Shown: piece after piece, positions 37,305 through 59,190 of the stretch
How the letters are laid out: each line of letters begins with the position of its first letter
How positions within the stretch are numbered: the first letter of the stretch is position 1
DNA from: Candidatus Bathyarchaeota archaeon
GTDB taxonomy: Archaea; Thermoproteota; Bathyarchaeia; 40CM-2-53-6
Reading direction: 5' to 3'
DNA: 64,000 nucleotides
Assembly (NCBI GenBank): GCA_963733055.1
Contig: CAVTBR010000001.1
Span: 480,001 to 544,000, forward strand
Notes under the pieces: model-generated
The model's database searches: none
What the model was told of the DNA's origin: nothing
Seen by the model: the letters and a program-made list of their open reading frames with translations, nothing else
Position numbers and translations under genes: made by a program

Positions 37305-37323
37305 CGCGCCATTAGACACACAC
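37305..37323 (-). repeat. Intergenic GTGTGTG-palindrome family, partial copy
   Basis: Reverse strand GTGTGTGTCTAATGGCGCG. Confidence 0.5.
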
Positions 37324-37339
37324 TGAGAAACAGGGGGCT

Positions 37340-38041
37340 TTACTTCGTCAGTGTTGCGTGTGGTCCATCTAACTTGACGTATCGCCAAGAACCATCAAAC
37401 TGCCCTGCTTTGAAGGCCCTGACACGCAACCTCGTCCGTGGTTTACCCTCTGAATCGTCGAACTTGACATCAATTACTCCGTCGCACATGTCTTCTAGAC
37501 TCTTGTAAAATGCTGCGGAATGAACTCCGCTTACGAACGCACTGAAAGAAATTCGATCATGTAGCTTGACCCTCGGTATTACGCGGGTTGCGTACCAATC
37601 CAGAAAAGCCTTCTCCTCGTTATATCGCAAAGCGATGGTACCGTTGTCGCTGAAGCCCACGTCGTTTCTTGTTGGATTCTCATCTTTCGTCATCTTCAAA
37701 AAGTAGAGACTCATGTCGGCAACTTTGAGGGAGTCGAAAGCCAATTTCTCTTTAGACTTAATCCCCAGGGTGGCGGAGTATCCGTCATAGAGGTGGAATT
37801 TTCCCTTCGCTTCAAGCGCATCGACATCCGTTCCCAGCGCCTTCAACTCCTGTCTAACTTGATCCGGGAATCGGGTGTAGTCAAAGAAGCTCACGACCTG
37901 ACCTGCGCTCAGAAGGTCATGAACTGTTGATTCAAGAATTTGGTAATAGTTCGAGTCAGGGTCATATTCGATAAGGACCGCAGTTCGATAGGGAACCCCC
38001 GCTGGTATTAGGTCGGCGAGTATGGGTATTCGGACGCTCAT
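37340..38041 (-). CDS. KaiC/RAD55-like protein lacking Walker A (paralogue 1)
   Basis: GVPYRTAVLIEYDPDS in place of the P-loop; DGVIDV..RLRVR C-terminus. Confidence 0.75.
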   Translation of the reverse strand: MSVRIPILADLIPAGVPYRTAVLIEYDPDSNYYQILESTVHDLLSAGQVVSFFDYTRFPDQVRQELKALGTDVDALEAKGKFHLYDGYSATLGIKSKEKLAFDSLKVADMSLYFLKMTKDENPTRNDVGFSDNGTIALRYNEEKAFLDWYATRVIPRVKLHDRISFSAFVSGVHSAAFYKSLEDMCDGVIDVKFDDSEGKPRTRLRVRAFKAGQFDGSWRYVKLDGPHATLTK

Positions 38042-38131
38042 AAGATTCTTGTAAAATCATGTTGGAACCCGCACAAATAGATTTCAGTAATCAGGGGACG
38101 CAGAAATCTGAACCGTCGTGGCTCGTCGTCA

Positions 38132-38159
38132 GAGTGGGTCAAGTAGGACGCACACACAC
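38132..38159 (+). repeat. Intergenic palindrome family, degenerate copy
   Basis: GAGTGGGTCAAGTAGGACGCACACACAC. Confidence 0.55.
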
Positions 38160-38204
38160 GAAAACTACAAATCTACTAGAACATAGGATTCTCATGTGTT
38201 CTAA

Positions 38205-38936
38205 TTGCCAAGGATGCCGTTAATCGAAGATTTGACTAAGGGGCCTGTACCCCCTGGATCGAATATTCTCGCTGAGTTTGATCCAGCCTCTCAATGGTAC
38301 AATACATCACTCACAATCGCGGCGGGATGGATAAGGAGTGGCGGCGTAGCCAGCTACAACGTGTACGACCACCCGCCTGATAACGTCAGGTTGCAGCTCA
38401 AACACCTCGGACTAGACACCGAGAGATTAGAAAAAGAGGAGAAATTTAGGATCGTAGATTGGTATACTTTCCAGCTAGGTCAGAAATCCAAAGAGAAATA
38501 TGCGAACGATTCCTTGAAAGTCGCGGACCTGAGCCTATTTTACTCTAGAACAGTGATTACCGCTACCCGCTCACCTTACCCCGGCACCCGATACCAATTG
38601 GGACCTGACGTCCTCAGAATCGCAGATGACGAGATGGTTGTCCTAAGATTCAACGACGAGAAAAGCTTCATCGACCTCTGGCGAACGCGAGAGATTCCAA
38701 CTGCGCCTGCGACGAAGTCGACGCAAATCTTGGGTGCGGTTAAGGGAGTTCATTCCGAGCACATCTACAAGAATCTGGAAGCCTCAGTTGACGGTATCAT
38801 TGACCTCAAGATTGACGAAGAGGAGGGTGAGGTAAAGAACCTGATGCGGATTAGGAATATGCGAAGCGTAGGTTATGACTCTCGCTGGCATCGTCTGAAG
38901 ATCGACGAGAACTTCGAAGTCACGTTAGAGAAGTAA
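38205..38936 (+). CDS. KaiC/RAD55-like protein lacking Walker A (paralogue 2)
   Basis: PPGSNILAEFDPASQWY; DGIIDL..MRIRNMR..DSRW. Confidence 0.78.
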   Translation: MPRMPLIEDLTKGPVPPGSNILAEFDPASQWYNTSLTIAAGWIRSGGVASYNVYDHPPDNVRLQLKHLGLDTERLEKEEKFRIVDWYTFQLGQKSKEKYANDSLKVADLSLFYSRTVITATRSPYPGTRYQLGPDVLRIADDEMVVLRFNDEKSFIDLWRTREIPTAPATKSTQILGAVKGVHSEHIYKNLEASVDGIIDLKIDEEEGEVKNLMRIRNMRSVGYDSRWHRLKIDENFEVTLEK

Positions 38937-38957
38937 CCATTCACCAGTCCCCTTTCG

Positions 38958-38980
38958 GTGTGTGTGGGTCTAGTGGTGCG
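38958..38980 (+). repeat. Intergenic palindrome family, left arm plus core
   Basis: GTGTGTGTGGGTCTAGTGGTGCG. Confidence 0.65.
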
Positions 38981-39082
38981 AACGACCAGATTTGAACCCG
39001 GTTGAATGTGCCCGGTAAATTGCGGTCAGGATCGGTTGGCAGGATTTCAGAGTGAAGTTGGACCGCGCGTTCGTTCGGCTGT

Positions 39083-39661
39083 TCAGCTGTATGTCTTTAC
39101 GAGGGTTTCGAGTTTCTGGGTGGCTTGTGTGGTTACGGCTTTCTTCAGGTCGTTTCCCTGATGGTCCTGGGTTACTAGTACTGGTCCGAAGTCTTTTACT
39201 TCCCATATCCAAACGAGTTCCGTTGGGCCAAGTTGTTCAAGCAATCGTTTCTTCACTCGTACGATCTTTGAGACGGCTAGGGCGGAGGCTCCGCCGGTGA
39301 ATTCGGAGTAGACGGCGCCGAATGTTTCCAGCCCCTTCTTCCCTTTCTCTCCTAGACCGCCTTTTCCGATGATGATTTTGGTTTGATACTTTTCTAGGAT
39401 GGGTGGGGTTAGGGCGTCCATGCGTGTGCTTGTGGTTGGGCCGCCGGCTAGGATCCTCCATTCGTCGCCGACCTTTTGTGAGATTGGGCCGCAGTGGAAG
39501 ATTGGTAGGCCGATTAGTTCTGGGAGGAATGTTTCGATTAGTTTCTTGTGGGCTTGATCTCTCGCGATTGCAATGTCGCCTGTGACATAGAGTACGTCTC
39601 CTGCACGAATGTCAACGACTCGGCTGTTGTCTTGTGGGACGTGGAGTCTTAATTCTACCAT
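39083..39661 (-). CDS. Class I fumarate hydratase/tartrate dehydratase beta subunit
   Basis: ARDQAHK, HCGP, GPTTSTRM, IGKGG. Confidence 0.92.
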   Translation of the reverse strand: MVELRLHVPQDNSRVVDIRAGDVLYVTGDIAIARDQAHKKLIETFLPELIGLPIFHCGPISQKVGDEWRILAGGPTTSTRMDALTPPILEKYQTKIIIGKGGLGEKGKKGLETFGAVYSEFTGGASALAVSKIVRVKKRLLEQLGPTELVWIWEVKDFGPVLVTQDHQGNDLKKAVTTQATQKLETLVKTYS

Positions 39662-43760: not shown

Positions 43761-44714
43761 TTAGTGGCGTCTGTAGGGTTGTCCGGTGAAGGTGAAGGTT
43801 TTGAAGAGTTCGTAGACTTTGTCTGGGATGCCTTCGACGACGTTGAGGCCTATGGCTCGGGCTACGTCGAGGGTGATGGGTGTTGCGTGGGACATGTAGC
43901 CGCGGGCTAGGAAGTCTGCGACGCGTTCCGCCTGTTCCTTATCCATCTTCCCCTGCAAGAGCCACATTACGAATGCTTTTGCGTTCTCTATTTCCAAGTT
44001 GGCCACATCCGACATTATGACCATGCGGTCGGTGATGTTCTGGATCGGTTTCGTCTTCGCTAGGGTGGTGATGGAGCCGGCTGGGTACATGCCGTCGGGG
44101 GTTGGAATCTGGGGGTCCACGGGCCCGAGAACGCTGTACTTCTCCATGCGAATTTCGCCGGCTGCCAGGGTCATTAGTGAACCGCCGGACATGGCGTAGA
44201 AGGGGACCATGACGGTAACTTTGGCTGGATGGAATTTAATTGCCATAGCCATCATCTGAGCCGCTAACGCGTAACCTCCGGGGGTGTGGATGATGAAATC
44301 CACGGGGGTGTCGGGTGGAATTTTACGCATCTTCTGAAGAATCGTCTCAGTATCCTCAATCCCAATCTCCACGTCTCCGCCCGGCTCGGTCCAAAGTTCC
44401 TTCTTGTGAATCATCGTAAGAACCCTAGTCCCACGCTCCTTCTCCAGGTCCTCAATGATTCTCTGACGCCACGCTAAGATTCCTGCTTTGGTGGTGGGCC
44501 GTTTGAATTCTGTCGGAGTTTCCCTTGGGCTTAACGCTCCCTCCACTTCCTCAGATGATTCCGTTTCTTCTTCTTTCTCGTCTGCTTCCTCGTCTTCGGA
44601 TCCACGCTTTCCGCTGGGTGGGTTGATTTTGCGAAGCGTATAGAGGAGCGCGGCTGAATTGATGGTGGTTATTGCTAGTAGGCCTAGTCCGAGGAAAAGC
44701 TCCGCATCATCCAA
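43761..44714 (-). CDS. SDH-family Clp-fold serine protease (predicted active)
   Basis: HTPGG, AMSGGS, LGPVDPQ, SHATPI; N-terminal TM and acidic linker. Confidence 0.85.
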   Translation of the reverse strand: MDDAELFLGLGLLAITTINSAALLYTLRKINPPSGKRGSEDEEADEKEEETESSEEVEGALSPRETPTEFKRPTTKAGILAWRQRIIEDLEKERGTRVLTMIHKKELWTEPGGDVEIGIEDTETILQKMRKIPPDTPVDFIIHTPGGYALAAQMMAMAIKFHPAKVTVMVPFYAMSGGSLMTLAAGEIRMEKYSVLGPVDPQIPTPDGMYPAGSITTLAKTKPIQNITDRMVIMSDVANLEIENAKAFVMWLLQGKMDKEQAERVADFLARGYMSHATPITLDVARAIGLNVVEGIPDKVYELFKTFTFTGQPYRRH

Positions 44715-44726
44715 CCTAGGTCCCTT

Positions 44727-45647
44727 TCACTGGTATTGTTTGCCTGGCCTGAGGCCGCCTGTGAATTCGATGGTCTCGAAGAGTTGGTGAACTTTCTCAG
44801 GCACACCCTCCACAACGTTCAACCCGATAGCACGCGCCACGTCCAACGTGATGGGTGTGCTACTGGACATGAAGCCTCCAACTAGGAAGTTGGCTACCTG
44901 TCCCGCTTGTTCTTCGTTCATGTGATCGCTCAAGAGCCATTTCACGAATTCTCTTGCGTTTTCCTCCTCCATGCGTGCGGATTCGGCTAGGAGGATGGTT
45001 CGGTCGGAGATGGTTTCGATGGGTTTACGCTTCAGGATGCCCATGACCGAGGTGGCTGGCATGTCGTCGATTAGGGGCTCTAGGGGGGCTAGGATGCTGC
45101 ATTTCTCCATCATGATCTCGTCCGCGGCCAAGACGACGTATGTGCCGTCGGACATGGCATAGAACGGAACCATAACCGTCACCTTCGCCTTATGATACCT
45201 CAACGCCATGGAAATGAGGTCCGCAGCGAACGTTAACCCGCCTTCCGTGTGTACGATGAAGTCTATCGGCTTATCCGGCGGAGTCTCCCGCACCTGTTGA
45301 AGTATTAATTCTGAATCCTCAAACCCAATCTCGGGCTCATCATCGCTAGCGCTCCAAGGCTCCTTACGGTGAATCAGAGTCAGAACTCTGGACCCACGCT
45401 CCTCCTCCAACTCATGAACCAACTGAGCCCTCCGAGCAAGAATCGCCTCTTTCGAAGGAGCCTTGTCTGCTTCATCACCTTCAGCCTCATCCTCATCCTC
45501 GTCTTCATCATCACCCCCCTGTGTCGCAGGGCTAGGTGCTTGTGGGATCTGCCAGAAACGGCGAATCACAAAGAGATTCGTCAACGAACTAAGTGAAGCC
45601 ACTACGACTATCGCTACAGCAAGCAGAAGGTCCAGCTCTTCCATCAC
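44727..45647 (-). CDS. SDH-family Clp-fold protease paralogue (degenerate triad)
   Basis: HTEGG, AMSDGT, LAPLEP, SSSTPI; same architecture as its neighbour. Confidence 0.82.
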   Translation of the reverse strand: MMEELDLLLAVAIVVVASLSSLTNLFVIRRFWQIPQAPSPATQGGDDEDEDEDEAEGDEADKAPSKEAILARRAQLVHELEEERGSRVLTLIHRKEPWSASDDEPEIGFEDSELILQQVRETPPDKPIDFIVHTEGGLTFAADLISMALRYHKAKVTVMVPFYAMSDGTYVVLAADEIMMEKCSILAPLEPLIDDMPATSVMGILKRKPIETISDRTILLAESARMEEENAREFVKWLLSDHMNEEQAGQVANFLVGGFMSSSTPITLDVARAIGLNVVEGVPEKVHQLFETIEFTGGLRPGKQYQ

Positions 45648-45749
45648 GCTTCACTTGTAACCGCGTCGCAAAATCTAGGTGAGAGTGTACCCTTGGAATC
45701 TAAAGGTTTTCGTGTATGGAGGACTATTACCTGCTGGAGAACCGCGGCC

Positions 45750-45771
45750 ATCTGATGTTGCGCACACACAC
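45750..45771 (+). repeat. Intergenic palindrome family, core plus right arm
   Basis: ATCTGATGTTGCGCACACACAC. Confidence 0.6.
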
Positions 45772-46636: not shown

Positions 46637-46665
46637 TGTGCAGGACTACATTATGATGCACGCAC
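46637..46665 (+). repeat. Intergenic palindrome family, degenerate copy
   Basis: TGTGCAGGACTACATTATGATGCACGCAC. Confidence 0.4.
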
Positions 46666-47692: not shown

Positions 47693-47710
47693 GTGGTGCG
47701 TGCGCACACC
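47693..47710 (+). repeat. Intergenic palindrome family, right half
   Basis: GTGGTGCGTGCGCACACC. Confidence 0.5.
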
Positions 47711-48075: not shown

Positions 48076-48086
48076 CGTACTTGCGC

Positions 48087-50835: not shown

Positions 50836-50945
50836 TTAGAATTAGCAAAACACGGCTATATCAACTTGAACGCATTACTTGACAACCAAGGGGAGATTGA
50901 ATTGTTCACGAAAATAACTCGGAGGTTGGAGCATGTGATGCACGT

Positions 50946-51070
50946 TCATCGGTAGTCAGGGTTACGGTTTCCTCTTTCAGCTGTTCGATCTTTCTTCAAG
51001 CGTTCTCCTTCATACCCAGAACTTTGATGTCGAAGTTGACGGATTTCTCTAGGTCCTTCACTCTGATGCC
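50946..51070 (-). pseudogene. Decayed duplicate of the 5' part of the VOC gene at 47229-47609
   Basis: GIRVKDLEKSVNFDIKVLGMKENA*RKIEQLKEETVTLTTDE versus GIRVKDLEKSVDFYTKVLGMKEGGRSKIEQTNGETVTLTTDE; internal stop and start codon deleted. Confidence 0.85.
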
Positions 51071-51114
51071 TGCTGCCGTCAAGCATCGGTACTCCCTATC
51101 GACTCCGCTGACGG

Positions 51115-51129
51115 GTGGTGCGCACGCAC
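51115..51129 (+). repeat. Intergenic palindrome family, right half
   Basis: GTGGTGCGCACGCAC. Confidence 0.55.
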
Positions 51130-51198
51130 GCTAAGAATCAGTAAACCTTTCGGACTTTGGAGCGTTAGCTATAGAGTTGAATCACTGTTAGCTTTTAA

Positions 51199-51516
51199 AT
51201 GCAAGACTACTCTGAACCAGAATATGTGATGGGAATGTCGAAGAAGATTAAGGTTCGGTGTGTAGGTTGTGGAGCGATTATTCGCGGCCGATCGACTCCA
51301 ATGATGTTGCAGATTACTCATAGCCAGCAAAGCCTGCTAGAGTCGGCCAGAGCGTTGGGTTTCACGTCGTCAAGCTGGCGGATTGGAGGGGTTATGAAAG
51401 CTCCAATGCATCGTAAATGTTTCATATTTGCTACCCGCGTGTGGAAGCTTGCCTTCATCACTCGGGCTCTCAGTCCGCGTCGTCACCCTGGCGAGCCGAC
51501 TCATCCATCAGTCTAG
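51199..51516 (+). CDS. Small hypothetical protein with CxxC...HxxC (possible Zn-binding)
   Basis: RCVGCG..MHRKC; lies between two repeat copies; start may be 51235. Confidence 0.45.
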   Translation: MQDYSEPEYVMGMSKKIKVRCVGCGAIIRGRSTPMMLQITHSQQSLLESARALGFTSSSWRIGGVMKAPMHRKCFIFATRVWKLAFITRALSPRRHPGEPTHPSV

Positions 51517-51614
51517 AGTAATTAGATCTGCACTTCCTTGCATACACGCAGAGAAGCGTGTGTTATAGCTTGTCCGCGATGGGAATTTGAACTGTTGTCG
51601 TTCATGTAATTTTT

Positions 51615-51645
51615 TGTGTGTGAGATCAATGGTGCGCACACACAC
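51615..51645 (+). repeat. Intergenic palindrome family, full copy
   Basis: TGTGTGTGAGATCAATGGTGCGCACACACAC. Confidence 0.9.
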
Positions 51646-51699
51646 TTCCACGGTGTCAACCGATTTATAGCGCGGTGACTCTTACTCGCTTGATTGCAA

Positions 51700-52608
51700 A
51701 TGAAGATCGGGTTCTTCCTTCCGCAGATCGGCCCTGCCGCTAATGTTGATTCGATTGTTAAGGTTGCGAAGCGGGCTGAGGAGTTGAAGTATGATAGCGT
51801 TTGGGTGACTGATCGATTGCTGTACCCTACGAATCCTCAGACAGCATACTTTGGCGGTCCGCTACCCGACCCATACAAACGTGTTTTCGACCCTTTGGAA
51901 ACGTTGACGTTCGCTGCTGCGCATACGAGCCGAGTAACGTTAGGAACAAGCGTCTTGGACATCCCCTTCTACAATCCAGTGACCCTAGCCCGCCGCTTAA
52001 CCACAATGGATGTTTTGTCCCGTGGAAGGCTGAGAGTTGGGTTCGGGCTCGGTTGGTCGAAGGATGAGTATGACGCCACTGGAGCGGAGATGAAAACTCG
52101 CGGCAAACGCGCAGACGAGTTCCTCAGCGTGCTTCATGCAATATGGACCACGGACCCCGCCGAGTTTCACGGCAAATACTTCCAACTTCCAAAATCCACA
52201 ATCCAACCGAAACCAACCCAGAAACCCCACCCTCCAATCTACCTAGCCGCATTCTCCCCAGGCGCAATGAAACGCACAGCCAAGCTGGCCGACGGATGGA
52301 TGCCGGTAGGCATGACGGTTGAGCAACTCAAATCCACATCAACCCAACTCCGAACCATGGTGAAAGAGGCGGGACGCGATCCAGCTAGTGTGAAGGTTAT
52401 CGCGCGATACAACTTCGCCGTAACTCCACAACCACAAGGCAAGGATAGAATGTTCTTCTCGGGAACGCTTGCACAGATCAAGGAGGATGTGGCAGCAATC
52501 AAAGCATATGGACCTGACGAGCTAATTCTAGACCCTACGTTCTCACCAGACACTCATACCGAGCAGGACTTCCTCCGAAACATGGAAGAACTCCGCAAAA
52601 TGCTCTAA
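51700..52608 (+). CDS. LLM-class F420-dependent oxidoreductase
   Basis: YDSVWVTD, DPLETLTFAAA, LGTSV, GRLRVGFGLGW, PKPTQKPHPPI. Confidence 0.9.
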   Translation: MKIGFFLPQIGPAANVDSIVKVAKRAEELKYDSVWVTDRLLYPTNPQTAYFGGPLPDPYKRVFDPLETLTFAAAHTSRVTLGTSVLDIPFYNPVTLARRLTTMDVLSRGRLRVGFGLGWSKDEYDATGAEMKTRGKRADEFLSVLHAIWTTDPAEFHGKYFQLPKSTIQPKPTQKPHPPIYLAAFSPGAMKRTAKLADGWMPVGMTVEQLKSTSTQLRTMVKEAGRDPASVKVIARYNFAVTPQPQGKDRMFFSGTLAQIKEDVAAIKAYGPDELILDPTFSPDTHTEQDFLRNMEELRKML

Positions 52609-52638: not shown

Positions 52639-52653
52639 GTGTGGAATCAATAG
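52639..52653 (+). repeat. Intergenic palindrome family, left half
   Basis: GTGTGGAATCAATAG, matching the left part of the 56911 copy. Confidence 0.45.
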
Positions 52654-52679
52654 AAGACAAGATTTGTGAGTGATTTCCG

Positions 52680-53153
52680 GTGGAAACAGAGCTAAAGGTT
52701 GGTGACGCGGCACCTGATTTCGAAGGCCAAACGTCCAAAGACACACAGGTTCGTCTGAAAGATTACATTGGAAAGAAGAATGTGGTGCTTTACTTCTACC
52801 CGAAGGATGATACCAAAGGTTGCACAATAGAAGCCTGCAGTTTCAGAGACAAGCTCCAATCGATAGCGGCTCTCTGGACAGAGGTTGTAGGCGTTAGCGT
52901 GGACACCGTTGAATCTCACAAAAAGTTCACCGAGAAGAACAGTCTCAACTTCCCATTGATCAGCGACCAAGACAAGCAGATTTCGAAGACCTACGGAGCC
53001 TTAAGCGAAGACGGCTCGCATGCGCAAAGAATGACTTTCATAATCGACAAGGAAGGCAAGATTGCCAAAATCTTCCCGGACGTCGATATCACAAAACACG
53101 CGCATGAAATCATCACCGCACTGAAACAACTTCCACTCAAGAAGACGAACTGA
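52680..53153 (+). CDS. bcp: Peroxiredoxin, BCP/PrxQ type
   Basis: YFYPKDDTKGCTIEACSFRD. Confidence 0.92.
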   Translation: METELKVGDAAPDFEGQTSKDTQVRLKDYIGKKNVVLYFYPKDDTKGCTIEACSFRDKLQSIAALWTEVVGVSVDTVESHKKFTEKNSLNFPLISDQDKQISKTYGALSEDGSHAQRMTFIIDKEGKIAKIFPDVDITKHAHEIITALKQLPLKKTN

Positions 53154-53197: not shown

Positions 53198-53226
53198 TGT
53201 GTGTGCGATCAATGATGCACACACAC
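53198..53226 (+). repeat. Intergenic palindrome family, full copy
   Basis: TGTGTGTGCGATCAATGATGCACACACAC, a near-perfect hairpin with one bulged G. Confidence 0.9.
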
Positions 53227-53302
53227 CTGAAGCCGAAAAGAACTGCGCGAGGCATGCTTAACGCTGCTAGCGCAGTTTACTCCGATGGCTGTTCGGGTTT
53301 CG

Positions 53303-53596
53303 TTAAGGTGTTTTCTTTAGGGCCTGTTTTACCTGATCTTCTGGAAAGGCTCTGAGGCTCATGATTTTCACAGCGTCTGCGGAGAGCGAGCTTAGAAGCG
53401 CTACGAGCGCAGCATCGTCGTTAGGCATGTCCAGTATTTCCACAGCGTCGTACGGTCCGGCGGTTACGTAGCCGGTAAGCTTGCCCCCGGCCTGTTCGAC
53501 ACCTTTCTTGATCTGATCGCGGGTCGAAGTGTATTCTTGTTTGAAATTCTTCTTGCCTTTCTCCGTGAAGTTAACTAGTAATACGTATGTTGGCAT
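53303..53596 (-). CDS. GYD domain protein
   Basis: MPTYVLLVNFTEKG..GGKL..GPYDAV..LRAF. Confidence 0.85.
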   Translation of the reverse strand: MPTYVLLVNFTEKGKKNFKQEYTSTRDQIKKGVEQAGGKLTGYVTAGPYDAVEILDMPNDDAALVALLSSLSADAVKIMSLRAFPEDQVKQALKKTP

Positions 53597-53669
53597 AACC
53601 TCATCCTATCCATCGTGCCTCTAAAGGCCTTTGGAAAGGATATTCCAGAATTGCGTCCTATGTTTGCTA

Positions 53670-53698
53670 TGTGGTGGATCTACTGGTGCGCACCCACA
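53670..53698 (+). repeat. Intergenic palindrome family, full copy
   Basis: TGTGGTGGATCTACTGGTGCGCACCCACA. Confidence 0.85.
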
Positions 53699-53805
53699 AG
53701 ATATGAAAGCCAAGCTAGTGGGCAAAGTGGCATTAGCGAATAATCATAACCTAGAAATCGTACAGACCACAAACATGGGTTTGTTTTGTTAAAGGGGACT
53801 GGCGC

Positions 53806-54531
53806 TTGTCTACTGTTATGGTTCCTCCATTCCTAAAGGAACTAGTTCCTGGCGGGTTCGAATATGGTGCGAATCTTCTTGTTGAATTTGACTCCGACTC
53901 CGTCTGGTACGAAACGTCGCTCACAATCGCGGCTGACGCAATAAGAGCGGGGATAAAGATTGACTACCACAATTTCCAGCACACTCCTGACGACATTAGG
54001 AAAGCCCTCGACCGACGCGGATTAGATGTGAAGATGCTCGAAGAGAGTGACATGCTTTGGATCGTTGACAGCTACACGGTACAAACAGGACTCGATACCT
54101 CCAAAGGCCAATCCGATGTTACTGAGATCTCCGTGAAACTGCCGGATTGGAGCATCGCTCTGGCTAAGGATCTTAAGGCAGGCATCTCGGAAGTCATGAA
54201 AAGGCGCCTGCATATTGACGATAACACTGGCATCCTGCTTCAGTACAACGAGGAGAAAGCCATCATAGACTTCTGGCGTACGCGGTTTATCCCTTATTCA
54301 AGGGCACGCGAATGTGTCACGATACTGTCACTCTTGAGAGATGTCGCCTCCTCCTCATTCTACAAGCAGTACGAATCGCTATGCGACGGAATAATTGATT
54401 TCAAGAGCGAAGAACGAGAGAACGAAATTCAGCATTATGTGAGGATCAGAAGTCTCCGCGGCAGAGGATGCGATTCTCGGTGGAGAAAGCTCCGATTGTC
54501 GGATAATGGCGAAGTCACACTAGTGGACTAG
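53806..54531 (+). CDS. KaiC/RAD55-like protein lacking Walker A (paralogue 3)
   Basis: GFEYGANLLVEFDSDSVWY, HIDDN, DGIIDF, RIRSLRG..DSRW. Confidence 0.78.
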   Translation: MSTVMVPPFLKELVPGGFEYGANLLVEFDSDSVWYETSLTIAADAIRAGIKIDYHNFQHTPDDIRKALDRRGLDVKMLEESDMLWIVDSYTVQTGLDTSKGQSDVTEISVKLPDWSIALAKDLKAGISEVMKRRLHIDDNTGILLQYNEEKAIIDFWRTRFIPYSRARECVTILSLLRDVASSSFYKQYESLCDGIIDFKSEERENEIQHYVRIRSLRGRGCDSRWRKLRLSDNGEVTLVD

Positions 54532-54547
54532 GAAAATCAGGTTTTCC

Positions 54548-54579
54548 TGTGTGTGGATCTAATGGTGCGCGCACACACA
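54548..54579 (+). repeat. Intergenic palindrome family, full copy
   Basis: TGTGTGTGGATCTAATGGTGCGCGCACACACA. Confidence 0.9.
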
Positions 54580-54642
54580 AGAAAGAAATAGGAAGTTGCC
54601 GCCACCGAGGGTGCAATTCTACCGTTTCAGAGTGTTATTTCC

Positions 54643-55089
54643 TTACATGACGCCGATTTGTTTTAGCATTCCCAGCAAGTCGTAGTTTAATCTCTCCTCG
54701 ACGATCTCGCCGTTCTTCCATGTGGCTACCGTGCAGAACTCAATATGGAACTTTTTGTTTGTCGCAGGAATCATGTTCCCGTCAGCGCCCTTCATAGGCC
54801 CCTTCATCGTGCCTGTAAAATCGGCTACCGAGCAAGTATAGTCGCCTTGCCCGAATAGAATCTTGTACGGATTGTTCACTAGATGATTGTCAGGAAATAT
54901 TTTGAAGAATGCTGCAGATTCGACATCATGGTTATGCCGTCCTCTTGTTGGTTCGGGTTGACCGGGCCAGTATACGGCAACATTGTCAGTATGGCGCTTC
55001 CTGAACGTCTCCCATTCCGAACTTCCAGGTCCCGCATTCCAAGCGTCATCCAAAGTTTTCATCAGTCGTAGGTTATCTTCAACGCCCAT
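54643..55089 (-). CDS. SnoaL-like ester cyclase
   Basis: FPDNH, FTGTMKGPM..IPATNKKF, GEIVEE..YD..GMLKQIG. Confidence 0.85.
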   Translation of the reverse strand: MGVEDNLRLMKTLDDAWNAGPGSSEWETFRKRHTDNVAVYWPGQPEPTRGRHNHDVESAAFFKIFPDNHLVNNPYKILFGQGDYTCSVADFTGTMKGPMKGADGNMIPATNKKFHIEFCTVATWKNGEIVEERLNYDLLGMLKQIGVM

Positions 55090-55133
55090 TCAAACAGCCC
55101 CCTAAGGTATCTCTGTAATTGGCCGCAATAATA

Positions 55134-55159
55134 GTGTGTGTGCGCACCAGCTGCCCCAC
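55134..55159 (-). repeat. Intergenic palindrome family, inverted copy
   Basis: Reverse strand GTGGGGCAGCTGGTGCGCACACACAC. Confidence 0.8.
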
Positions 55160-55200
55160 CTCTCCGTAAACTCGCTTCCTTGTGAACTTTCTAATTGAAA

Positions 55201-56214
55201 CTACAACCTCGGTCCGGCGTCTCGAATGAGCGGCGCTGTAGCGCAATGCGGACCTCCCCCGCTTTTTATGAACTCACTCATATCGACTGTTATGACATCT
55301 ACGCCCTCTCTTTCTAGCCTCTTCTGCGATTTACCAAATCCCTCAAGCATCATGACCTTTCCAGGTTCAAGGGCAAAGGTATTGCAGGCGTAGTCCTTTG
55401 CTTCCTCCGGCTCTACTTCTATGATATTGATACCTCGCCGTTTTAGGTATTCCAAGAAGTCGAACGGCACTCCGGCAGGGTAGACCATGGCGAGCCCCGA
55501 GTCAACATAGCCAAAGACGCAGTCTAAATGCGCGAATCCTCCAGCAGGCCAATTAATATTCTCAATCCAACCCGGTAGAGGCACTGTGACGATATCTTCC
55601 ACGCCTACCGACCTGAGTACACTCGATACTTGGTCTATGCCGTCTTGATTCGTCCTAATGCTTTTGCCTATGCATACGTGCGTCGGGTCAAGCCAGATCA
55701 CATTTCCTCCTTCGATCGTACCCCGACCGTGTACGGTATACAAGATGGGACATCCCAATTCCATGACCCTTTTAGCCCACCAATATTCTGCCCCCCTGTC
55801 CCAGGGTAATGAAGTGCGGTTTACTATTGCTCCTCCGTTAACAACGAAACCGTAGTCCCTCGTTCCCCAGATACCTTGTAGTTGAGCGTATAGACCTGCA
55901 ACGCCTGGCGGGGCTTTCATGTCATGAACTACTATTCTCTCCTTTCTCAGAATCTCGACAAAGCTATCGTGTTGCTTGCCAGCTTTCTCTGGGTGAATCT
56001 TCTTGGTTATGCCGTGCCATCGCAAGTTCTTCTTGGGGGCTATCTCAAGTCCGGGTCTCTGAACCAGTACTTCTCTGAGTTTTCCGATCTCGCTCTGTGC
56101 ACCCCACTTCTTCCCCCAGATTAGGGCTAGCTCATCATCGTAAGTAGAAGCGAGTGGAAGCGCAGGTTTCGTTTTGTCTATTTCCATCAAAGCCTTCTTT
56201 TTGCTCATCCTCAA
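55201..56214 (-). CDS. Amidinotransferase/dimethylarginase (pentein) family hydrolase
   Basis: SEIGKLREVLV..P, TRD, IEGGN, RTN, HLD, GGGPHC. Confidence 0.88.
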   Translation of the reverse strand: MRMSKKKALMEIDKTKPALPLASTYDDELALIWGKKWGAQSEIGKLREVLVQRPGLEIAPKKNLRWHGITKKIHPEKAGKQHDSFVEILRKERIVVHDMKAPPGVAGLYAQLQGIWGTRDYGFVVNGGAIVNRTSLPWDRGAEYWWAKRVMELGCPILYTVHGRGTIEGGNVIWLDPTHVCIGKSIRTNQDGIDQVSSVLRSVGVEDIVTVPLPGWIENINWPAGGFAHLDCVFGYVDSGLAMVYPAGVPFDFLEYLKRRGINIIEVEPEEAKDYACNTFALEPGKVMMLEGFGKSQKRLEREGVDVITVDMSEFIKSGGGPHCATAPLIRDAGPRL

Positions 56215-56397
56215 GCACCTCTGTTGGTTAGATTGCGGCTAGGTCAGGATCATGTGCTAATAGATTTCTGCATAGATTATTGAAAACGAATACAACAGAA
56301 GGCAATGGCATCGGACCTTCGGCATCATCAGCGGCGGCTAGTGTTGCGAGAAACTAGATGAAAGCTTGCTGGCGTCGAAATTTGAACCGTCAAAAAA

Positions 56398-56428
56398 GTG
56401 TGTGTGTGCGCACCATTAGCCCCACACA
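56398..56428 (-). repeat. Intergenic palindrome family, inverted full copy
   Basis: Reverse strand TGTGTGGGGCTAATGGTGCGCACACACACAC. Confidence 0.88.
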
Positions 56429-56483
56429 GACGCACCAGCATACCCACCCCCCAGAAAATACGAATCAAATGACGGTTATGTGA

Positions 56484-56840
56484 CTAGGCTGGTAAGCTTA
56501 AACACTTTGCAACACTATCGGCGACTTCCGTTGGATTTGCATTCAACTCTACTCCGATTGAAAGATGTCCATCCTTGAAAGGAAAAATAAGTTCATACAT
56601 TGTGCCATACCGAACGACTAGGTATCGCATTCCGTTCATGTCGAGATTTCCTCTTCGCCGAGTCAGTTCAAGAAGTATAGGGTTCACTATGAGTTCCTCC
56701 ATCCGATCAGTTTCTGTGGGGTTAAGGCTCGGCCGCTTCGGGTTCTGTTCCATCTCGACGATCAGCCCTCTCTGATTTATTGCAACATAGCGAATATTCG
56801 GATTAAGGTCAAACAGCCTAGCACTAGTCTTCTCACTCAT
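56484..56840 (-). CDS. Hypothetical protein (roadblock/profilin-like fold suspected)
   Basis: NIRYVAI..YLVVRYG..LIFP..HLSIGVE pattern. Confidence 0.6.
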   Translation of the reverse strand: MSEKTSARLFDLNPNIRYVAINQRGLIVEMEQNPKRPSLNPTETDRMEELIVNPILLELTRRRGNLDMNGMRYLVVRYGTMYELIFPFKDGHLSIGVELNANPTEVADSVAKCLSLPA

Positions 56841-56910
56841 CGGCGGCGTCCTTCGGCAGAACCAGCCCTACACACCTAAACTTCAAGTTTACCTGATGCA
56901 CCCGTTTTCA

Positions 56911-56938
56911 GTGTGTGGTATCAATAGTGCGCACACAC
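56911..56938 (+). repeat. Intergenic palindrome family, full copy
   Basis: GTGTGTGGTATCAATAGTGCGCACACAC. Confidence 0.9.
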
Positions 56939-57056
56939 TTTTCCTAACGGCCCCGGAGTGCACTGAGGGCACGCTCCCAATCTACCGAGAGACTCGTCAT
57001 GCCATATGCGCTACAGAACGCGGGCTTGTCAGAAGACTTCGGGGGTCACCTATCTC

Positions 57057-57707
57057 TCACATGTTTTTTGCTTTGCGACTCAGGAGCAATAAATGCTGAA
57101 GTCCACGACTTACCCAGAGGCTTGCCAGAATCGCATACCAAAGGTAGAATCGCAGTGGAGTGCCTTGGATCATCCAGGACCAAAAGATTGGAAGAGCGGA
57201 TAACCCAAACAACCCAGCGGATATAAACTGCGTATTACGGAGCCACGTATACCCACCAATTAATTCCGGCTCGACCATTTCCTCTTTCCTCGTCAACATC
57301 TGTGCAAACAACCCCAAAATTCCAGTCAGGCCGGTCAAGTCGAGAGCGTAAATTTGAGATGTGAATGCAAGCATAGCGTGGTTTGCGGTGGCTGGGCCGA
57401 AAGTGATGAGGCTAAGCAGGTAGGGCTCGATCGAAACGAAGAAGAGCAGGAGGATATTCAGCCACATCATCATCCCCCTCTCGAAGCGGTCTCGCGGCCA
57501 GGCAGTTACCATACCAGTGTATCTGGACCAAACAGAAATCAAAATGAAGAAACTAAAACCGAATCCGAAAATGTCAGCCACAACGTCACTTGGATTGACG
57601 GCCGGTCGACTCAGCAACGACAACGATCCAATCGAGAGAGCCAGGCCGAATATCAAATCAGAGAGGGATTCGATTCTAGGTTTCGGAATTCGTACACCGA
57701 ACGTCAA
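57057..57707 (-). CDS. TMEM175-like K+ channel, copy 2
   Basis: RIESLSDLIFGLALSI; FVSIEPYL and IYALD shared with 41117-41755. Confidence 0.78.
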   Translation of the reverse strand: MTFGVRIPKPRIESLSDLIFGLALSIGSLSLLSRPAVNPSDVVADIFGFGFSFFILISVWSRYTGMVTAWPRDRFERGMMMWLNILLLFFVSIEPYLLSLITFGPATANHAMLAFTSQIYALDLTGLTGILGLFAQMLTRKEEMVEPELIGGYTWLRNTQFISAGLFGLSALPIFWSWMIQGTPLRFYLWYAILASLWVSRGLQHLLLLSRKAKNM

Positions 57708-57831
57708 TCACCCACGTAAATGTCCAGCGAGTTAACAGTGAATTTTCGCTAATAAGCTCCTTTTTCCCGACCAAACGTGGACAATCAGTCTGGTCAAACA
57801 GCGAAGGAAGCAAGAGGATGTTCAGTGGAAA

Positions 57832-57861
57832 GTGTGTGTGGATCGAATCGTGCGCACACAC
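57832..57861 (+). repeat. Intergenic palindrome family, full copy
   Basis: GTGTGTGTGGATCGAATCGTGCGCACACAC. Confidence 0.9.
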
Positions 57862-57885
57862 TAGCGGATCCTAGGGTCGCTCGTA

Positions 57886-58083
57886 TTATGGAGGCATTAC
57901 TCTTTTGCCGCTTCTCTTATCGAACATAACCGTCCACCCGCCCCTTGGAGAAACGCCTCTGATAACATAAAAATCCGCATCTTCGAACTTTTCAGTAACC
58001 GCTGCCTGATGCCACGCGGTTCTAGCGAATAGCTCCGCACGCCTAGAAGCCTCATTCAAGTCCAAAATCTTCTCAGGTTCCAT
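57886..58083 (-). CDS. Small hypothetical protein (PepSY-like pattern)
   Basis: MEPEKILDLNEASRRAE...WTVMFDKRSG; AGGAG upstream of the ATG. Confidence 0.5.
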   Translation of the reverse strand: MEPEKILDLNEASRRAELFARTAWHQAAVTEKFEDADFYVIRGVSPRGGWTVMFDKRSGKRVMPP

Positions 58084-58266
58084 TCTCCTTTCGGGCATTC
58101 TGCGCCGGTTCCTCTGCCACTCACGCCTAGCCAAGACAGTCCCCAATGGCGATAACTTGGACACGTGAATAGAACTTTTCCCGCGGCGGCTAGAACTAGT
58201 ATAGGGTATTGGCGCAGGTTGTTGTGTCGATGCGGCTGTGTGAGTACCTGAATTTGAATCGACGTC

Positions 58267-58290
58267 GGTCCTAATGGTGCGCACACACAC
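58267..58290 (+). repeat. Intergenic palindrome family, core plus right arm
   Basis: GGTCCTAATGGTGCGCACACACAC. Confidence 0.8.
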
Positions 58291-58364
58291 TTACCACGCT
58301 AAACGACGGCGGTTCAAATCATCGTGCTCGCACCAGCTGTAACACTCCCGAAGAGGATTAGGAA

Positions 58365-59084
58365 CTATTGACTCAATGTAACTTCGCCAGTGTCTAACAG
58401 GCGGATTTTTCGCCAAGAGGAGTCAAATGGCTTACCTCGCAGTAACCTTACCCGTACACGCTGCTCCATTCGGCCTTCCGTCTCTTTACCCTCGAAATCG
58501 ATTATCCCATCAGACAACGATTCGCATTGCCTATAGAAAGACTCCGAAGCCACTCCAGTCAAAAGAGAAAATATCCACAAAGATCCTGAGGCTTTGGTGT
58601 CGGGGATTCCTCGGGTCCTGAGCCAATCGACAATCGCGTTTTCCGAGTTATACCTGTTAAGAACCGAAAGATTATCGTCGATGTGCAACCAGCCCTTTTG
58701 TTCCTCCGCGTAGCCTTCCTTCAACAGTCGGGATTGGGTGAGGCTCATGTCGGCAAGCTTCACGCTCTGAGTCTCTTCCGTTACGCGTAATCCAAGTTGA
58801 GTGGTGTAGCTATCCTTGATTCTTAGAGCGCCCTCTTCCTCAAGTTTCTTAGCATTCAAACCGAGATTGGTGAGAGCGTTTCTAATCTCGTTAGGATTAC
58901 GTTCGAATGTATGGTACTCAGTTTTCAGACCATCTCTCAAAGCACCAGCTGCAATTGTAAACGACGTTTCATACCAGATAGAGTCCGGTGCGAATTCGAT
59001 GAGTAAATTCGTCCCATATTGGATTCGACCTTGAATTGAGCCCTTCAGGATAGGCAAGGCAGCAGCTCGGGACAAGCGGTTCAT
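58365..59084 (-). CDS. KaiC/RAD55-like protein lacking Walker A (paralogue 4)
   Basis: IQYGTNLLIEFAPDSIWY, HIDDN, DGIIDF, RVRLLRG..DSSW. Confidence 0.78.
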   Translation of the reverse strand: MNRLSRAAALPILKGSIQGRIQYGTNLLIEFAPDSIWYETSFTIAAGALRDGLKTEYHTFERNPNEIRNALTNLGLNAKKLEEEGALRIKDSYTTQLGLRVTEETQSVKLADMSLTQSRLLKEGYAEEQKGWLHIDDNLSVLNRYNSENAIVDWLRTRGIPDTKASGSLWIFSLLTGVASESFYRQCESLSDGIIDFEGKETEGRMEQRVRVRLLRGKPFDSSWRKIRLLDTGEVTLSQ

Positions 59085-59180
59085 CTAAGCTCGCAATCGA
59101 ATTAGGCTTGATATCTGTCTTGCGAAGCGGTTGGTATGCGGTCGGCTGAGGTAAGCGTCTGAAATTGAATCACGGGTTTA

Positions 59181-59190
59181 GTGTGTGTCT
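59181..59190 (+). repeat. Intergenic palindrome family, left-arm remnant
   Basis: GTGTGTGTCT preceded by GAAATTGAATC; short, so weak evidence. Confidence 0.35.

Follow-up and report, generated by a model that had tools for sequence, protein, structure and literature searches.

What is the short repeat that separates single genes along a Bathyarchaeia chromosome, and which activity put it there? The window analysed here, the whole 64,000-nucleotide stretch, comes from a 96% complete genome, referred to below as G000. A preliminary description had reported about 17 full or partial intergenic copies of a ~30-nt palindromic repeat and proposed that they are the recombination junctions of a gene-acquisition array. 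Our analysis suggests, with a probability of about 0.72, that the repeat is the junction between neighbouring casposon-type elements, that is, cassettes which a Cas1-type integrase added in succession.

Distribution of the repeat

All 18 positions listed in the preliminary description were checked in the sequence, and each carries the motif in full or in a part that can still be recognised. The core GGTGCGCACACAC (at most one mismatch) occurs 10 times in the window, against a mean of 0.07 in 100 shuffles, none of which reached 10; the centre as first printed, GATCNAATGGTGCG (at most two mismatches), occurs six times where 1.88 are expected, a count reached in 0/100 shuffles. Upstream of 37 kb, a scan of the window with a position-weight matrix (PWM, scores in bits) gives no score above 12.1, in agreement with the reported absence of the motif from the first ~33 kb. 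Scanning the whole genome yields 56 copies of at least 20 bits, and 53 of these lie outside called genes in a genome that is 82% called coding sequence. The 53 gaps comprise 27 tandem, 14 convergent and 12 divergent cases, and the orientation independence noted earlier is thus real. Copies are often found 5-70 nt downstream of stop codons. The repeat is present in 21 of the 22 genomes searched from the same Bathyarchaeia genus; it occurs only in variable islands, and in other species the same genes are not accompanied by it.

Anatomy of the junctions

The repeat is not one palindromic site, as had been supposed, but two transposon ends around a target-site duplication (TSD). Read on the strand that was first printed, it is a composite: the right terminal inverted repeat (TIR) of one element contributes its (GT)n tip, a 14-15 bp TSD with the consensus GGTCTAATGGTGCG follows, and the next element's left TIR adds its (CA)n tip. 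In relatives this TSD is duplicated around Cas1 elements (see below). The enclosed genes are those described before, from the luciferase-like monooxygenase (LLM) to small ORFs of no family. Features are listed with their evidence in brackets.

Outlying sites
37292-37332 (-), degenerate junction, TSD-like 37305-37319, left edge of a small two-cassette array (PWM 12.9 bits)
37340-38041 (-), cassette gene, KaiC-like ATPase paralogue, 233 aa, member of a 28-copy family (weak Pfam KaiC/MEDS matches)
38123-38163 (+), junction of TIR tip, TSD 38136-38150 and (CA)n TIR tip (PWM 25.1)
38205-38936 (+), cassette gene, KaiC-like ATPase paralogue, 243 aa (Pfam PF06745, E 2.3e-11)
38953-39001 (+), type B junction of (GT)n TIR tip, TSD 38966-38980 and tRNA-like leader, the leader being 8 nt plus GATTTGAACC, the reverse complement of a T-loop; adjoined by core fumarase genes (PWM 39.6)
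45735-45775 (+), half junction, TSD-like 45748-45762 and (CA)n left TIR tip (core and PWM scans)
46637-46665 (+), strongly degenerate junction (by eye only; under the PWM threshold)
47693-47741 (+), TSD remnant and long left TIR (CA-rich tip, ACGAACGG, GGTTCGA) resembling the one that the LLM cassette carries in G019 and G014 (sequence)

Main array
51115-51135 (+), left boundary, TSD remnant and TIR tip (synteny with G019, 97% identity, stops at 51129)
51615-51645 (+), junction, TSD 51622-51636 (core and PWM scans)
51694-52608 (+), cassette gene, LLM (family match), with its own TATA-type promoter at about 51660-51675, conserved in five genomes
52639-52660 (+), degenerate junction (PWM scan, sequence); G019 has here an intact junction and two additional cassettes
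52680-53153 (+), cassette gene, AhpC/TSA (Bcp) peroxiredoxin (family match)
53198-53227 (+), junction, TSD 53205-53219, left breakpoint of a 3.7-kb segment absent from G019 and peat contigs
53303-53596 (-), cassette gene, GYD domain protein (family match)
53670-53698 (+), junction, TSD 53676-53690 (centre and PWM scans)
53806-54531 (+), cassette gene, KaiC-like ATPase (family match); its two flanking 15-nt TSDs agree at 14/15 positions
54548-54578 (+), junction, TSD 54555-54569 (centre and PWM scans)
54643-55089 (-), cassette gene, SnoaL-like (family match)
55134-55160 (-), junction, inverted TSD 55143-55157 (core and PWM scans)
55201-56214 (-), cassette gene, arginine deiminase/amidinotransferase fold (family match)
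56398-56428 (-), junction, inverted TSD 56409-56423 (PWM scan), with many differing neighbours in peat contigs
56484-56840 (-), cassette ORF, 118 aa, no family (ORF, family search)
56911-56940 (+), junction, TSD 56917-56931, right breakpoint of the 3.7-kb segment (PWM scan, peat contigs)
57057-57707 (-), cassette gene, TMEM175-like membrane protein, ends forming inverted repeats (local score 11)
57832-57861 (+), junction, TSD 57840-57854; G019 synteny breaks at 57861 (PWM scan, peat contigs)
57886-58290 (-), cassette ORF, 134 aa, no family (ORF, family search)
58267-58356 (no strand assigned), TSD 58267-58281 (+), TIR-only unit (CA tip, ACGACGG, GGTTCAAAT, 8 nt) and inverted TSD 58329-58343 belonging to a type B site on the minus strand
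58365-59084 (-), cassette gene, KaiC-like ATPase paralogue (family match)
59160-59200 (+), right boundary, right TIR (AAATTGAATC..GTGTGTGT) and degenerate TSD (G019 synteny restarts at 59154)

On the other strand the TSD reads CGCACCA-YTAGACC, a tRNA 3' end (acceptor end, discriminator A and encoded CCA) plus seven bases, and starts with CGCA, the motif of the Methanosarcina mazei casposase target. It had been overlooked that TGGTGCG, read on the complementary strand, gives the 3' end of a tRNA, and that the copies at 38958 and 58316 (-) run into a T-loop-like stretch instead of CACACAC. Type B junctions of this kind carry a tRNA-like leader beside the TSD, with the T-loop-like GGTTCAAAT at exact tRNA spacing; a distance of 9 nt separates TGGTGCG from ATTTGAAC in 77 of 128 matches, as it does in real tRNA genes. 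In addition, a TIR-like trailer directly follows two real tRNA genes, and of the 22 clusters, five have a detected tRNA gene no more than 500 nt away, where 0.6 would be expected (P about 5e-4).

The cassette ends score higher as inverted repeats than a control (median local score 8 versus 6, Mann-Whitney P 1e-9; scores of at least 12 in 6/65 versus 0/65), and in most window cassettes the common TIR is only a 6-9 nt (CA)n tip of low-complexity sequence. Neighbouring TSDs resemble each other slightly more than randomly paired ones do (77 pairs; 3.45 versus 3.81 mismatches across 8 nt, P 0.02), a weak signal in which only 11 of the 77 pairs have at most one mismatch. Relatives also contain gene-less tandem units of 47-62 nt.

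Cas1 elements in relatives and the search for an enzyme

Three elements of 7-11 kb in related genomes are bounded by the same junctions, with identical duplications of 13-15 bp on their two flanks, and each encodes a Cas1 protein of 405-410 aa. The element at G004:C45 (7,144 bp) has the 14-bp TSD GGTCAGCTGGTGCG on both sides and that at G015:C3 (10,966 bp) a TSD of 13-14 bp, the TIR tips agreeing at 17/17 positions in both; the element at G014:C3 (8,614 bp) has a 15-bp TSD and (CA)n/(GT)n tips like those of the window. On one side of all three lies a type B (leader) site. The Cas1 proteins match PDB 6OPM over nearly their full length (E 9.5e-79 and 6.9e-71) versus E 6e-24 for the best CRISPR Cas1; 6OPM, their closest solved homologue (E 1e-79), was deposited along with the paper on the M. 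mazei casposase. PolB is absent from all three delimited elements, which are thus not textbook casposons.

No Cas1 was found in the window or the whole host genome (best tblastn E 0.09), nor in six other repeat-rich congeners; G000, G018, G019, G011, G013 and G021 lack it with 27-48 core matches in each. Current mobility here is therefore putative. PolB was likewise not found in the window modules or the host genome. The preliminary description had placed the responsible enzyme outside the window, acting in trans, and the Cas1-free window and the matching casposases of relatives agree with this. The class it had named, a HUH or tyrosine enzyme, does not hold up: the search that it suggested for a co-occurring tyrosine recombinase or Y1/RAYT transposase found no Y1 in G000, no tyrosine recombinase in the 98% complete congener G018 despite its 38 repeat copies, and no PF00589 match (E up to 1e-5) in G018, G006, G007, G012, G020 and G034, and the matching enzyme is a Cas1-family casposase. 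Serine and IS110 recombinases were not found in the five genomes searched, and no protein reaches the cut-off for an integron-type integrase. The six tyrosine recombinases that G000 encodes elsewhere, none near an array, score 45-69 bits versus an XerA cut-off of 220.

Cassette gain, loss and inversion

Relative to G019, the closest relative, the flanks are syntenic, the cassettes differ and the breakpoints coincide with junctions. In one place G019 has a lone junction where the window holds five cassettes; unrelated new cassettes lie between conserved junctions. Peat metagenome contigs (three runs of one study; assemblies, not reads) skip the same segment and contain joints between opposite strands at junctions, and may come from the same population as G019. 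The comparison of breakpoints between close relatives that had been proposed earlier bears out the idea of a gene-acquisition array, since those of gain, loss and inversion fall within the repeat. All three mappable crossovers are located between the (GT)n tip and TGGTGCG. Exact 14-mers are kept across species whose common cassette genes are 66-93% identical in DNA. Among 29 mapped loci of relatives with homologues of several cassette genes, 11 have no junction nearby. Of the 39 intragenomic duplicate pairs, a single one begins at a junction; the host genome thus shows no trace of recent copy-and-paste.

A casposon-type model and its alternatives

We read the single-gene modules of the window as putative non-autonomous casposon-like cassettes inserted in tandem. 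A casposase from the autonomous elements of related genomes would insert TIR-bounded DNA into a tRNA-end target and duplicate it, and each new TSD copy could be used again, leading to a tandem pile-up. As the window modules have neither Cas1 nor PolB, only casposase supplied in trans could have moved them, and each small cassette would itself have been its substrate. Since all three Cas1 elements adjoin a leader, insertion is probably polarised, and arrays may be extended on the side next to the leader. Within the window array the TSDs point in both directions; simple repeated insertion does not predict this, which counts against our explanation, and inversion between inverted TIR tips may be the cause. 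The Cas1-free host genome and congeners, the short low-complexity tips, the weak likeness of neighbouring TSDs, the relatives' loci with no junction nearby, the near absence of duplicate pairs that begin at junctions and the missing PolB count against it as well. The Cas1-type integrase (casposase) family gave rise to CRISPR; here it would have made a gene-capture array of integron-like build.

An alternative that we regard as unlikely, though it deserves weight, is that the junctions are old casposon scars and that present shuffling is homologous recombination between 30-bp repeats, within or between co-existing strains, with no casposase acting on the small cassettes. The lack of Cas1 in the six repeat-rich genomes named above and the very short TIRs of most cassettes are in keeping with it, and deletions between direct copies and inversions between inverted copies are what homologous recombination predicts. 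However, neutral scars should decay, yet the exact 14-mers persist across species; the three crossovers all map to the same interval; and new unrelated cassettes between conserved junctions need an insertion mechanism. Scars would thus account for maintenance and shuffling, not for origin.

It is highly improbable that a chromosomal, XerA-like tyrosine recombinase moves the modules in trans at a dif- or pdif-like site. The palindrome is imperfect, spans about 28-30 bp and has an asymmetric centre, and this, the modules in both orientations, the lack of a linked enzyme and the tyrosine recombinases elsewhere in G000 would all suit such a site, but those proteins fall far below the XerA cut-off, the six genomes listed above have no PF00589 match, and the 14-15 bp centre is duplicated around inserted elements, which to our knowledge tyrosine recombinases do not do. 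We give equally little credence to a transcriptional signal (stress-regulon operator, insulator or bidirectional terminator). The palindromic, intergenic repeat often follows stop codons, and stress-type enzymes and KaiC-like ATPases are over-represented in the cargo; against this stand the mixed gap types, the gene-less units, the tRNA-end geometry, the duplication around Cas1 elements and the restriction to variable islands. The junctions may have a secondary transcriptional role. Least probable of all is an integron-like array (attC, cluster without integrase) or a REP/BIME-like hairpin spread by RAYT/Y1, for which the cargo of single accessory genes typical of environmental cassettes (glyoxalase, DinB, peroxiredoxin) and the integrons reported in archaeal MAGs (PMC9668308, accessible text) might speak, but no Y1 was found in G000 and no integron-type integrase at its cut-off, the repeat of about 30 bp has no GTTRRRY/RYYYAAC boxes on reading the sequence, and both strands carry genes, with a promoter of its own for the LLM cassette at least. 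The data thus do not support identity with a known integron, with pdif/Xer or with REP/RAYT.

Comparison with known systems

The junctions most resemble family 2 casposons of M. mazei (MetMaz-C1 and relatives). According to the accessible text of PMC6977970 and PMC4779613, these produce TSDs of 14 bp that invariably start 5'-CGCA and overlap the 3' end of tRNA-Leu, require up to 30 bp of upstream tRNA sequence for targeted integration, and also occur in tandem with a common TSD between them. Both systems have a Cas1-family casposase with a C-terminal extension, a 14-15 bp TSD starting with CGCA over a tRNA 3' end, TIRs, upstream tRNA sequence (needed in M. mazei, present here), reuse of one target by elements separated by a common TSD, and solo TIRs. 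Unlike in M. mazei, the host belongs to Bathyarchaeia, the three delimited autonomous elements lack PolB, the TIRs terminate in simple repeats, (CA)n, (CCG)n or Cn, with a 3' end of G rather than C, and the TSD also covers the encoded CCA. Cas1-less TSD-TIR-cargo-TIR-TSD units have a counterpart in engineered mini-casposons, which, as the accessible text of PMC10359463 describes, are moved in trans into a resident TSD, forming a tandem, and leave a single clean target site on excision. The literature searched contained such laboratory constructs only and no natural mini-casposons; here, natural non-autonomous single-gene units form arrays of 9-12 junctions, in contrast to the pairs of M. mazei.

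CRISPR arrays likewise combine a Cas1-family integrase, a repeat that is the duplicated target, a leader-like sequence beside the used site and apparently polarised insertion, and the short tandem units of relatives add to the likeness. However, the repeat here is 14-15 bp, the inserted genes measure 0.4-1.5 kb and carry TIR tips, and there are no linked Cas2 or effector genes and no evidence of an immune role. The pdif modules of Acinetobacter plasmids are also small, flanked by short imperfect palindromes in varied contexts and served by an enzyme in trans, but searches of several hosts here found no Xer-type enzyme, the site centre is duplicated on insertion and the sites do not alternate in orientation. 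Integron cassette arrays and CALINs, finally, are also made up largely of single accessory genes with a conserved recombination signal between them, differ in cassette content from one close strain to another and often have their enzyme elsewhere. They differ in having attC structures and IntI, whereas here genes with promoters of their own occur on either strand, a TSD between two transposon ends serves as the signal, and a Cas1-type enzyme takes the place of the tyrosine recombinase.

Distribution and anatomy of the repeat

The repeat is strongly over-represented in the window, which spans 480001-544000 of host contig C1. GGTGCGCACACAC occurs 10 times with at most one mismatch, against a mean of 0.07 in 100 shuffles, none of which reaches 10, and the motif or a recognisable part of it is present at all 18 positions listed in the preliminary description. 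The same search gives 35 matches in the complete host genome (2.88 Mb in three contigs, 50.5% G+C), in which one core protein has close relatives in Bathyarchaeia MAGs from peat and soil. An iterated weight-matrix scan of this genome yields 68 copies of at least 14 bits; at 20 bits and above, 53 of 56 copies lie outside called genes, and these 53 occupy tandem (27), convergent (14) and divergent (12) gaps. The copies occur in clusters. In the window there are a nine-junction array and, at 37-39 kb, a small one, and a second large array of 12 junctions, likewise with one gene per gap, lies on contig C2 at 519-533 kb. TGGTGCGCACACAC, with at most one mismatch, is found in 21 of the 22 other genomes of the genus, in up to about 50 copies each, and the reversed pattern has 0-1 matches. 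Outside the genus, two genomes have 11 and 19 matches and the other 16 have 0-3. Viral contigs scanned with a 22-base pattern gave no match, and the window itself gave no Rfam match at the gathering threshold and no tRNA with ARAGORN.

The repeat had been described as a single palindromic site. This description has to be revised, as only the centre is duplicated and the GT and CA arms are parts of the two neighbouring elements. Each junction thus consists of the (GT)n right TIR tip of one element, a TSD of 14-15 bp and the (CA)n left TIR tip of the next; the arms are dinucleotide repeats, in which register slips are possible. Many copies have an ACGACG-rich stretch and GGTTCAAAT on both flanks, one flank being inverted relative to the other, so that the 30-nt motif sits in the middle of a longer inverted structure whose own centre, of 14-15 nt, is asymmetric. 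Ends placed around such an asymmetric centre suggested a transposon with TIRs and a long TSD, which is the signature of a casposon.

The TSD also resembles the 3' end of a tRNA. Its TGGTGCG is the reverse complement of CGCACCA, the tRNA 3' end, and on the tRNA-sense strand the TSD of the Bathyarchaeial junctions reads CGCA-CCA-N7; TGCG, itself part of the scan model, is found in 118 of 135 junctions. About one fifth of the copies (28 of the 135 classed junctions) are type B sites, which lack the CACACAC continuation and instead carry a tRNA-like leader, composed of 8 variable bases and GATTTGAACC, the reverse complement of a T-loop. This T-loop-like block lies 9-17 nt upstream of the TSD, its spacing from TGGTGCG being 9 nt in 77 of 128 matches, and real tRNA genes in the same pattern match have the same spacing. 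Two real tRNA genes (C1:343234-343392 and C3:367674-367766) directly abut the rest of the motif downstream, and the 3' end of the second recurs behind it in degenerate form. For 5 of the 22 clusters a tRNA gene was detected within 500 nt, where 0.6 would be expected.

The tRNA genes of the host encode their 3' CCA and are intron-rich (for example, C1:343231-343392 and C2:201861-201977), and the tools disagree on their number: plain ARAGORN reports 7, its search with introns 33, of which some are spurious, and Infernal with RF00005 13 over the cut-off. Poor tRNA annotation is therefore to be expected in such MAGs. One tRNA 3' end, from T-arm to CCA, is present in five copies on C1, at about 211215, 583014, 1332585, 1423415 and 1428504, with a truncated tyrosine integrase (C1:1427652-1428236) beside one of them; they look like ordinary att duplicates of a different, integrase-type family of elements.

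Cas1 elements at the same junctions in relatives

Cas1 (PF01867) matches occur in 12 of the 22 congeners, often in several copies (11 in genome G017), in ORFs that measure about 405-440 aa. The boundaries of three Cas1 elements could be determined.

Delimited Cas1 elements in congeners of the host (genome:contig)
G004:C45, 7,144 bp: identical 14-bp TSD GGTCAGCTGGTGCG on both sides; (CCG)n TIR tips matching at 17/17
G015:C3, 10,966 bp: TSD of 13-14 bp; TIR tips matching at 17/17
G014:C3, 8,614 bp: TSD of 15 bp; (CA)n/(GT)n tips like those of the window

All three have an identical TSD of 13-15 bp on both sides, and outside the TSDs lies a neighbour's (GT)n tip on one side and a tRNA-like leader on the other, so that of the motif itself no more than the 14-15 nt centre is duplicated. 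In G004:C45, ACGACG-rich subterminal repeats lie inside of the (CCG)n tips. The Cas1 proteins match PDB 6OPM, the accession deposited with the Methanosarcina mazei casposase paper, over nearly their full length (E 9.5e-79 and 6.9e-71), the best CRISPR Cas1 match being 6e-24. There is good support for the repeat being composite and for its being identical with a casposase target and casposase ends.

No PolB was found among 20 ORFs scanned in Cas1 elements. The G014:C3 element has no ORF longer than 410 aa, and none of the PF00136 or PF03175 matches of G014, G015 and G004 lies on the contigs that bear the three elements; in G017, one PF03175 match lies 11 kb from a Cas1 fragment. The three delimited elements thus lack the PolB of self-synthesising elements, which is one of the defining features of casposons. 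They carry defence-like genes (AIPR, TIR domain, DUF4365, methylase). The wider set of Cas1 elements at loci L050-L058 (in G014, G015, G004 and G002) encodes AIPR, a TIR-domain protein, DUF4365, an N6/N4 DNA methylase and Hypoth_Ymh, again with no PolB, and on G014:C8 one Cas1 gene occupies a unit of about 2.8 kb between two junctions.

Neither the window nor the rest of the host genome has a PF01867 match or a tblastn match to Cas1 better than E 0.09. At about 1506449 on C1, the remnant of a casposon end of the (CCG)n type lies directly against a TSD and type B leader, which indicates that this Cas1-less genome once held such an element.

Arrays and their cargo

Both arrays in the window are made of small TIR-tipped units that contain neither Cas1 nor PolB.

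Arrays and KaiC-like genes in the window
37.3-39.0 kb: small array; two KaiC-like cassettes, ending in a type B site
37340-38041: KaiC-like ATPase paralogue
38205-38936: KaiC-like ATPase paralogue
51.1-59.2 kb: main array; ten modules, left TIR start at 51115, right TIR end at 59160-59200
53806-54531: KaiC-like ATPase paralogue
58365-59084: KaiC-like ATPase paralogue

The type B leader at the end of the small array abuts core fumarase genes. The gene contents of the modules, listed earlier as unrelated accessory functions (LLM, Bcp, GYD, KaiC-like, SnoaL, amidinotransferase, TMEM175 and small ORFans), are as stated there, and other arrays carry glyoxalases, DinB, an EamA transporter, oxidoreductases, glycosyltransferases and ORFs without a family. 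The commonest cargo is the KaiC-like ATPase (paralogues of about 240 aa), 15 of whose 28 genomic copies adjoin a junction, often on both sides. The LLM cassette has its own TATA-type promoter, which is kept in five genomes.

Inverted repeats are commoner at cassette ends than in the control (P 1e-9 for 65 cassettes), the TIR of most cassettes being a CA/GT tip of only 6-9 nt. The TSDs that flank the KaiC cassette at 53806-54531 are identical at 14 of 15 positions, the best case in the window; other pairs there differ at 3-4 positions, and neighbouring TSDs overall are slightly more alike than random pairs (P 0.02). The TSDs at 55143 and 56409, with one cassette between them, are inverted, an arrangement that a single inversion between inverted TIR tips on either side would yield.

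Tandem units of 47-62 nt without a gene occur in relatives' loci, namely L002 (8800-9150, on G019:C10), L005 (700-1330), L023 (3150-3430) and L003 (2480-2640), and in the window at 58267-58343. They are composed of a TSD, a TIR tip, an ACGACG-rich stretch, the T-loop-like block and 8 variable bases, and may be either repeated insertions of TIR-only fragments or products of deletion. Elsewhere in the window, two tandem paralogous genes (43761-45647, minus strand) encode ClpP-like SDH-type serine proteases of 317 and 306 aa. The contig ends C2:5-2111 and C3:5571-7685 are 98.5% identical over 2.1 kb, which may reflect an assembly overlap or a large repeat.

Cassette mosaicism among close relatives

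In the closest relative, G019, the flanks of the main array are syntenic with the window (97% identity over 47758-51129 and 86-89% over 59154-64000), and inside the array only three modules (LLM, Bcp and TMEM175; 91-93% identity) are common to both. The five modules at 53227-56911 are replaced by one junction in G019, two additional modules lie between LLM and Bcp, a different 3.9 kb follows TMEM175, and the small-ORF module at 51129-51658 is absent. All breaks of homology in this comparison fall at junctions, which bears out the expectation that gene gain and loss would break in the repeat. The lone junction in place of five cassettes looks like a clean excision site.

Contigs from peat (three runs of one study) show similar rearrangements, and as assemblies, possibly including the G019 population, they are not fully independent of this comparison. 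The skip seen in G019 recurs in them, from 53200 to 56911 (the shorter side of this joint has 255 letters) and, in two runs, from 53205 to 56932; the small-ORF module is also skipped, two opposite-strand joints lie at junctions, and loose ends at junction edges have several different continuations. Every run examined consisted of contigs, the best-matching DNA run containing 26% of the words, and a joint from 55159 to 58966 was set aside because one of its sides has only 26 letters. In more distant species the same genes are often found elsewhere, with or without junctions around them, and 11 of the 29 mapped loci of relatives have no junction within about 3 kb.

Directly left of the main array, at 48361-50835 on the minus strand, a gene encodes a multi-pass membrane protein of 824 aa. 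Its region is 97% identical in DNA to G019, against 86-93% in the surroundings. The protein, which belongs to no Pfam family, was considered as a recombinase and rejected as such.

Origin and mobility of the modules

The shared junction anatomy and the published behaviour of mini-casposons suggest that the single-gene modules were each mobilised by a casposase. Other observations speak against this: Cas1 was not found in the host or in six further genomes rich in the repeat, the TIRs are short, and recent copies within the genome are lacking, since a self-BLAST of the host genome for recently copied cassettes gave 39 duplicate pairs of which one begins at a junction. Part of the shuffling is probably due to homologous recombination between the conserved junctions, and this could be the sole process now active.

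The broader reading, in which the arrays form an active system of gene capture driven by Cas1 (a 'casposase integron') and a living structural intermediate between casposons and CRISPR arrays, is tentative, and we put its probability at about 0.3. Under this reading, short pieces of TIR-tipped DNA would be inserted again and again by a PolB-less casposase. Most of them would be single genes and some TIR-only fragments of about 40 nt, and they would enter at the leader-proximal copy of the 14-15 bp repeat, which would regenerate itself. Such a system would stand between casposons and CRISPR arrays because it would combine a leader, a repeat that is the duplicated target, and polarised growth.

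Other enzymes fare less well. The preliminary description had proposed a tyrosine or HUH enzyme acting in trans. The host has six tyrosine recombinases, with scores far below the XerA cut-off and none near an array, but G018, which is 98% complete and has 38 core matches, is without a PF00589 match, as are five more genomes that bear the repeat, and this speaks against a tyrosine recombinase. An early idea, that the junctions are att sites of tyrosine-integrase elements in tRNA genes, was dropped because the six host integrases are located elsewhere and G018 has none. Y1/RAYT transposases (PF01797) have no match in the host genome, which is 96% complete, and a REP/RAYT system is thereby disfavoured. 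Serine recombinases and IS110 were found in none of five genomes, and TnpB was found in four of five genomes but not in the host.

What is seen genus-wide in soil and peat Bathyarchaeia is dozens of casposase target junctions per genome; most of these junctions delimit single accessory genes, and the arrays vary from one close strain to another. The junction arrays explain contig breaks and hypervariable islands in these MAGs and provide a search model. If the small cassettes are moved by casposases, then Cas1-family integrases can run an integron-like exchange of genes, and arrays of duplicated targets beside a leader arise naturally from casposition. This origin of leader-adjacent arrays is the least documented step of the casposon-to-CRISPR scenario, and the step becomes testable with defined sequences.

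Comparison with known systems

The arrays differ from integrons in that the genome has no integrase at integron-integrase cut-offs, and none near an array; the repeat, at about 30 bp and with no GTTRRRY on reading the sequence, is also unlike attC, a folded site of 57-141 bp with R and L boxes. A host Xer-type tyrosine recombinase accompanies pdif sites wherever they occur, whereas six repeat-bearing genomes, G018 among them, have no PF00589 match. CRISPR arrays have unique spacers, identical repeats of 24-47 bp and cas genes, a combination that was not found; here the inserted units are genes of 0.4-1.5 kb, the core of the repeat measures 14-15 bp, and the tandem units of 47-62 nt in relatives are repeated TIR and leader sequence, unlike unique CRISPR spacers.

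The CRISPR adaptation module is proposed to descend from casposons. Only a few casposons are known, and those are large, contain Cas1 and PolB and stand at most two side by side. Literature on Bathyarchaeia cassettes and Bathyarchaeia MGEs yielded nothing specific to the repeat. In the open literature, neither Bathyarchaeial casposons nor non-autonomous casposon cassettes of natural origin nor arrays of more than two were found described; mini-casposons and non-autonomous casposons appeared only in the M. mazei work. The arrays depart from casposons in two respects: the window and the host genome are without Cas1, which is encoded by elements bounded by the same junction in relatives, and the three delimited Cas1 elements have no family B DNA polymerase.

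According to two reports (PMC4779613, PMC6977970), M. mazei casposons have TSDs of 14 bp with an invariant 5'-CGCA, the TSD overlaps the last 4 bp of tRNA-Leu, targeted integration in vitro requires the TSD and 30 bp of upstream tRNA, and natural tandem casposons that share one TSD between them occur, as do solo TIRs. Engineered mini-casposons (TSD-TIR-cargo-TIR-TSD) are described in PMC10359463 as moving in trans in vivo into a resident TSD, with a tandem as the result, and as leaving a single clean target site on excision. The Bathyarchaeial junctions share with casposons the TIRs, a TSD of about 14-15 bp, and a tRNA 3'-end target with CGCA of the family 2 type, and the mechanism that they suggest is a close match to casposition in M. 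mazei.
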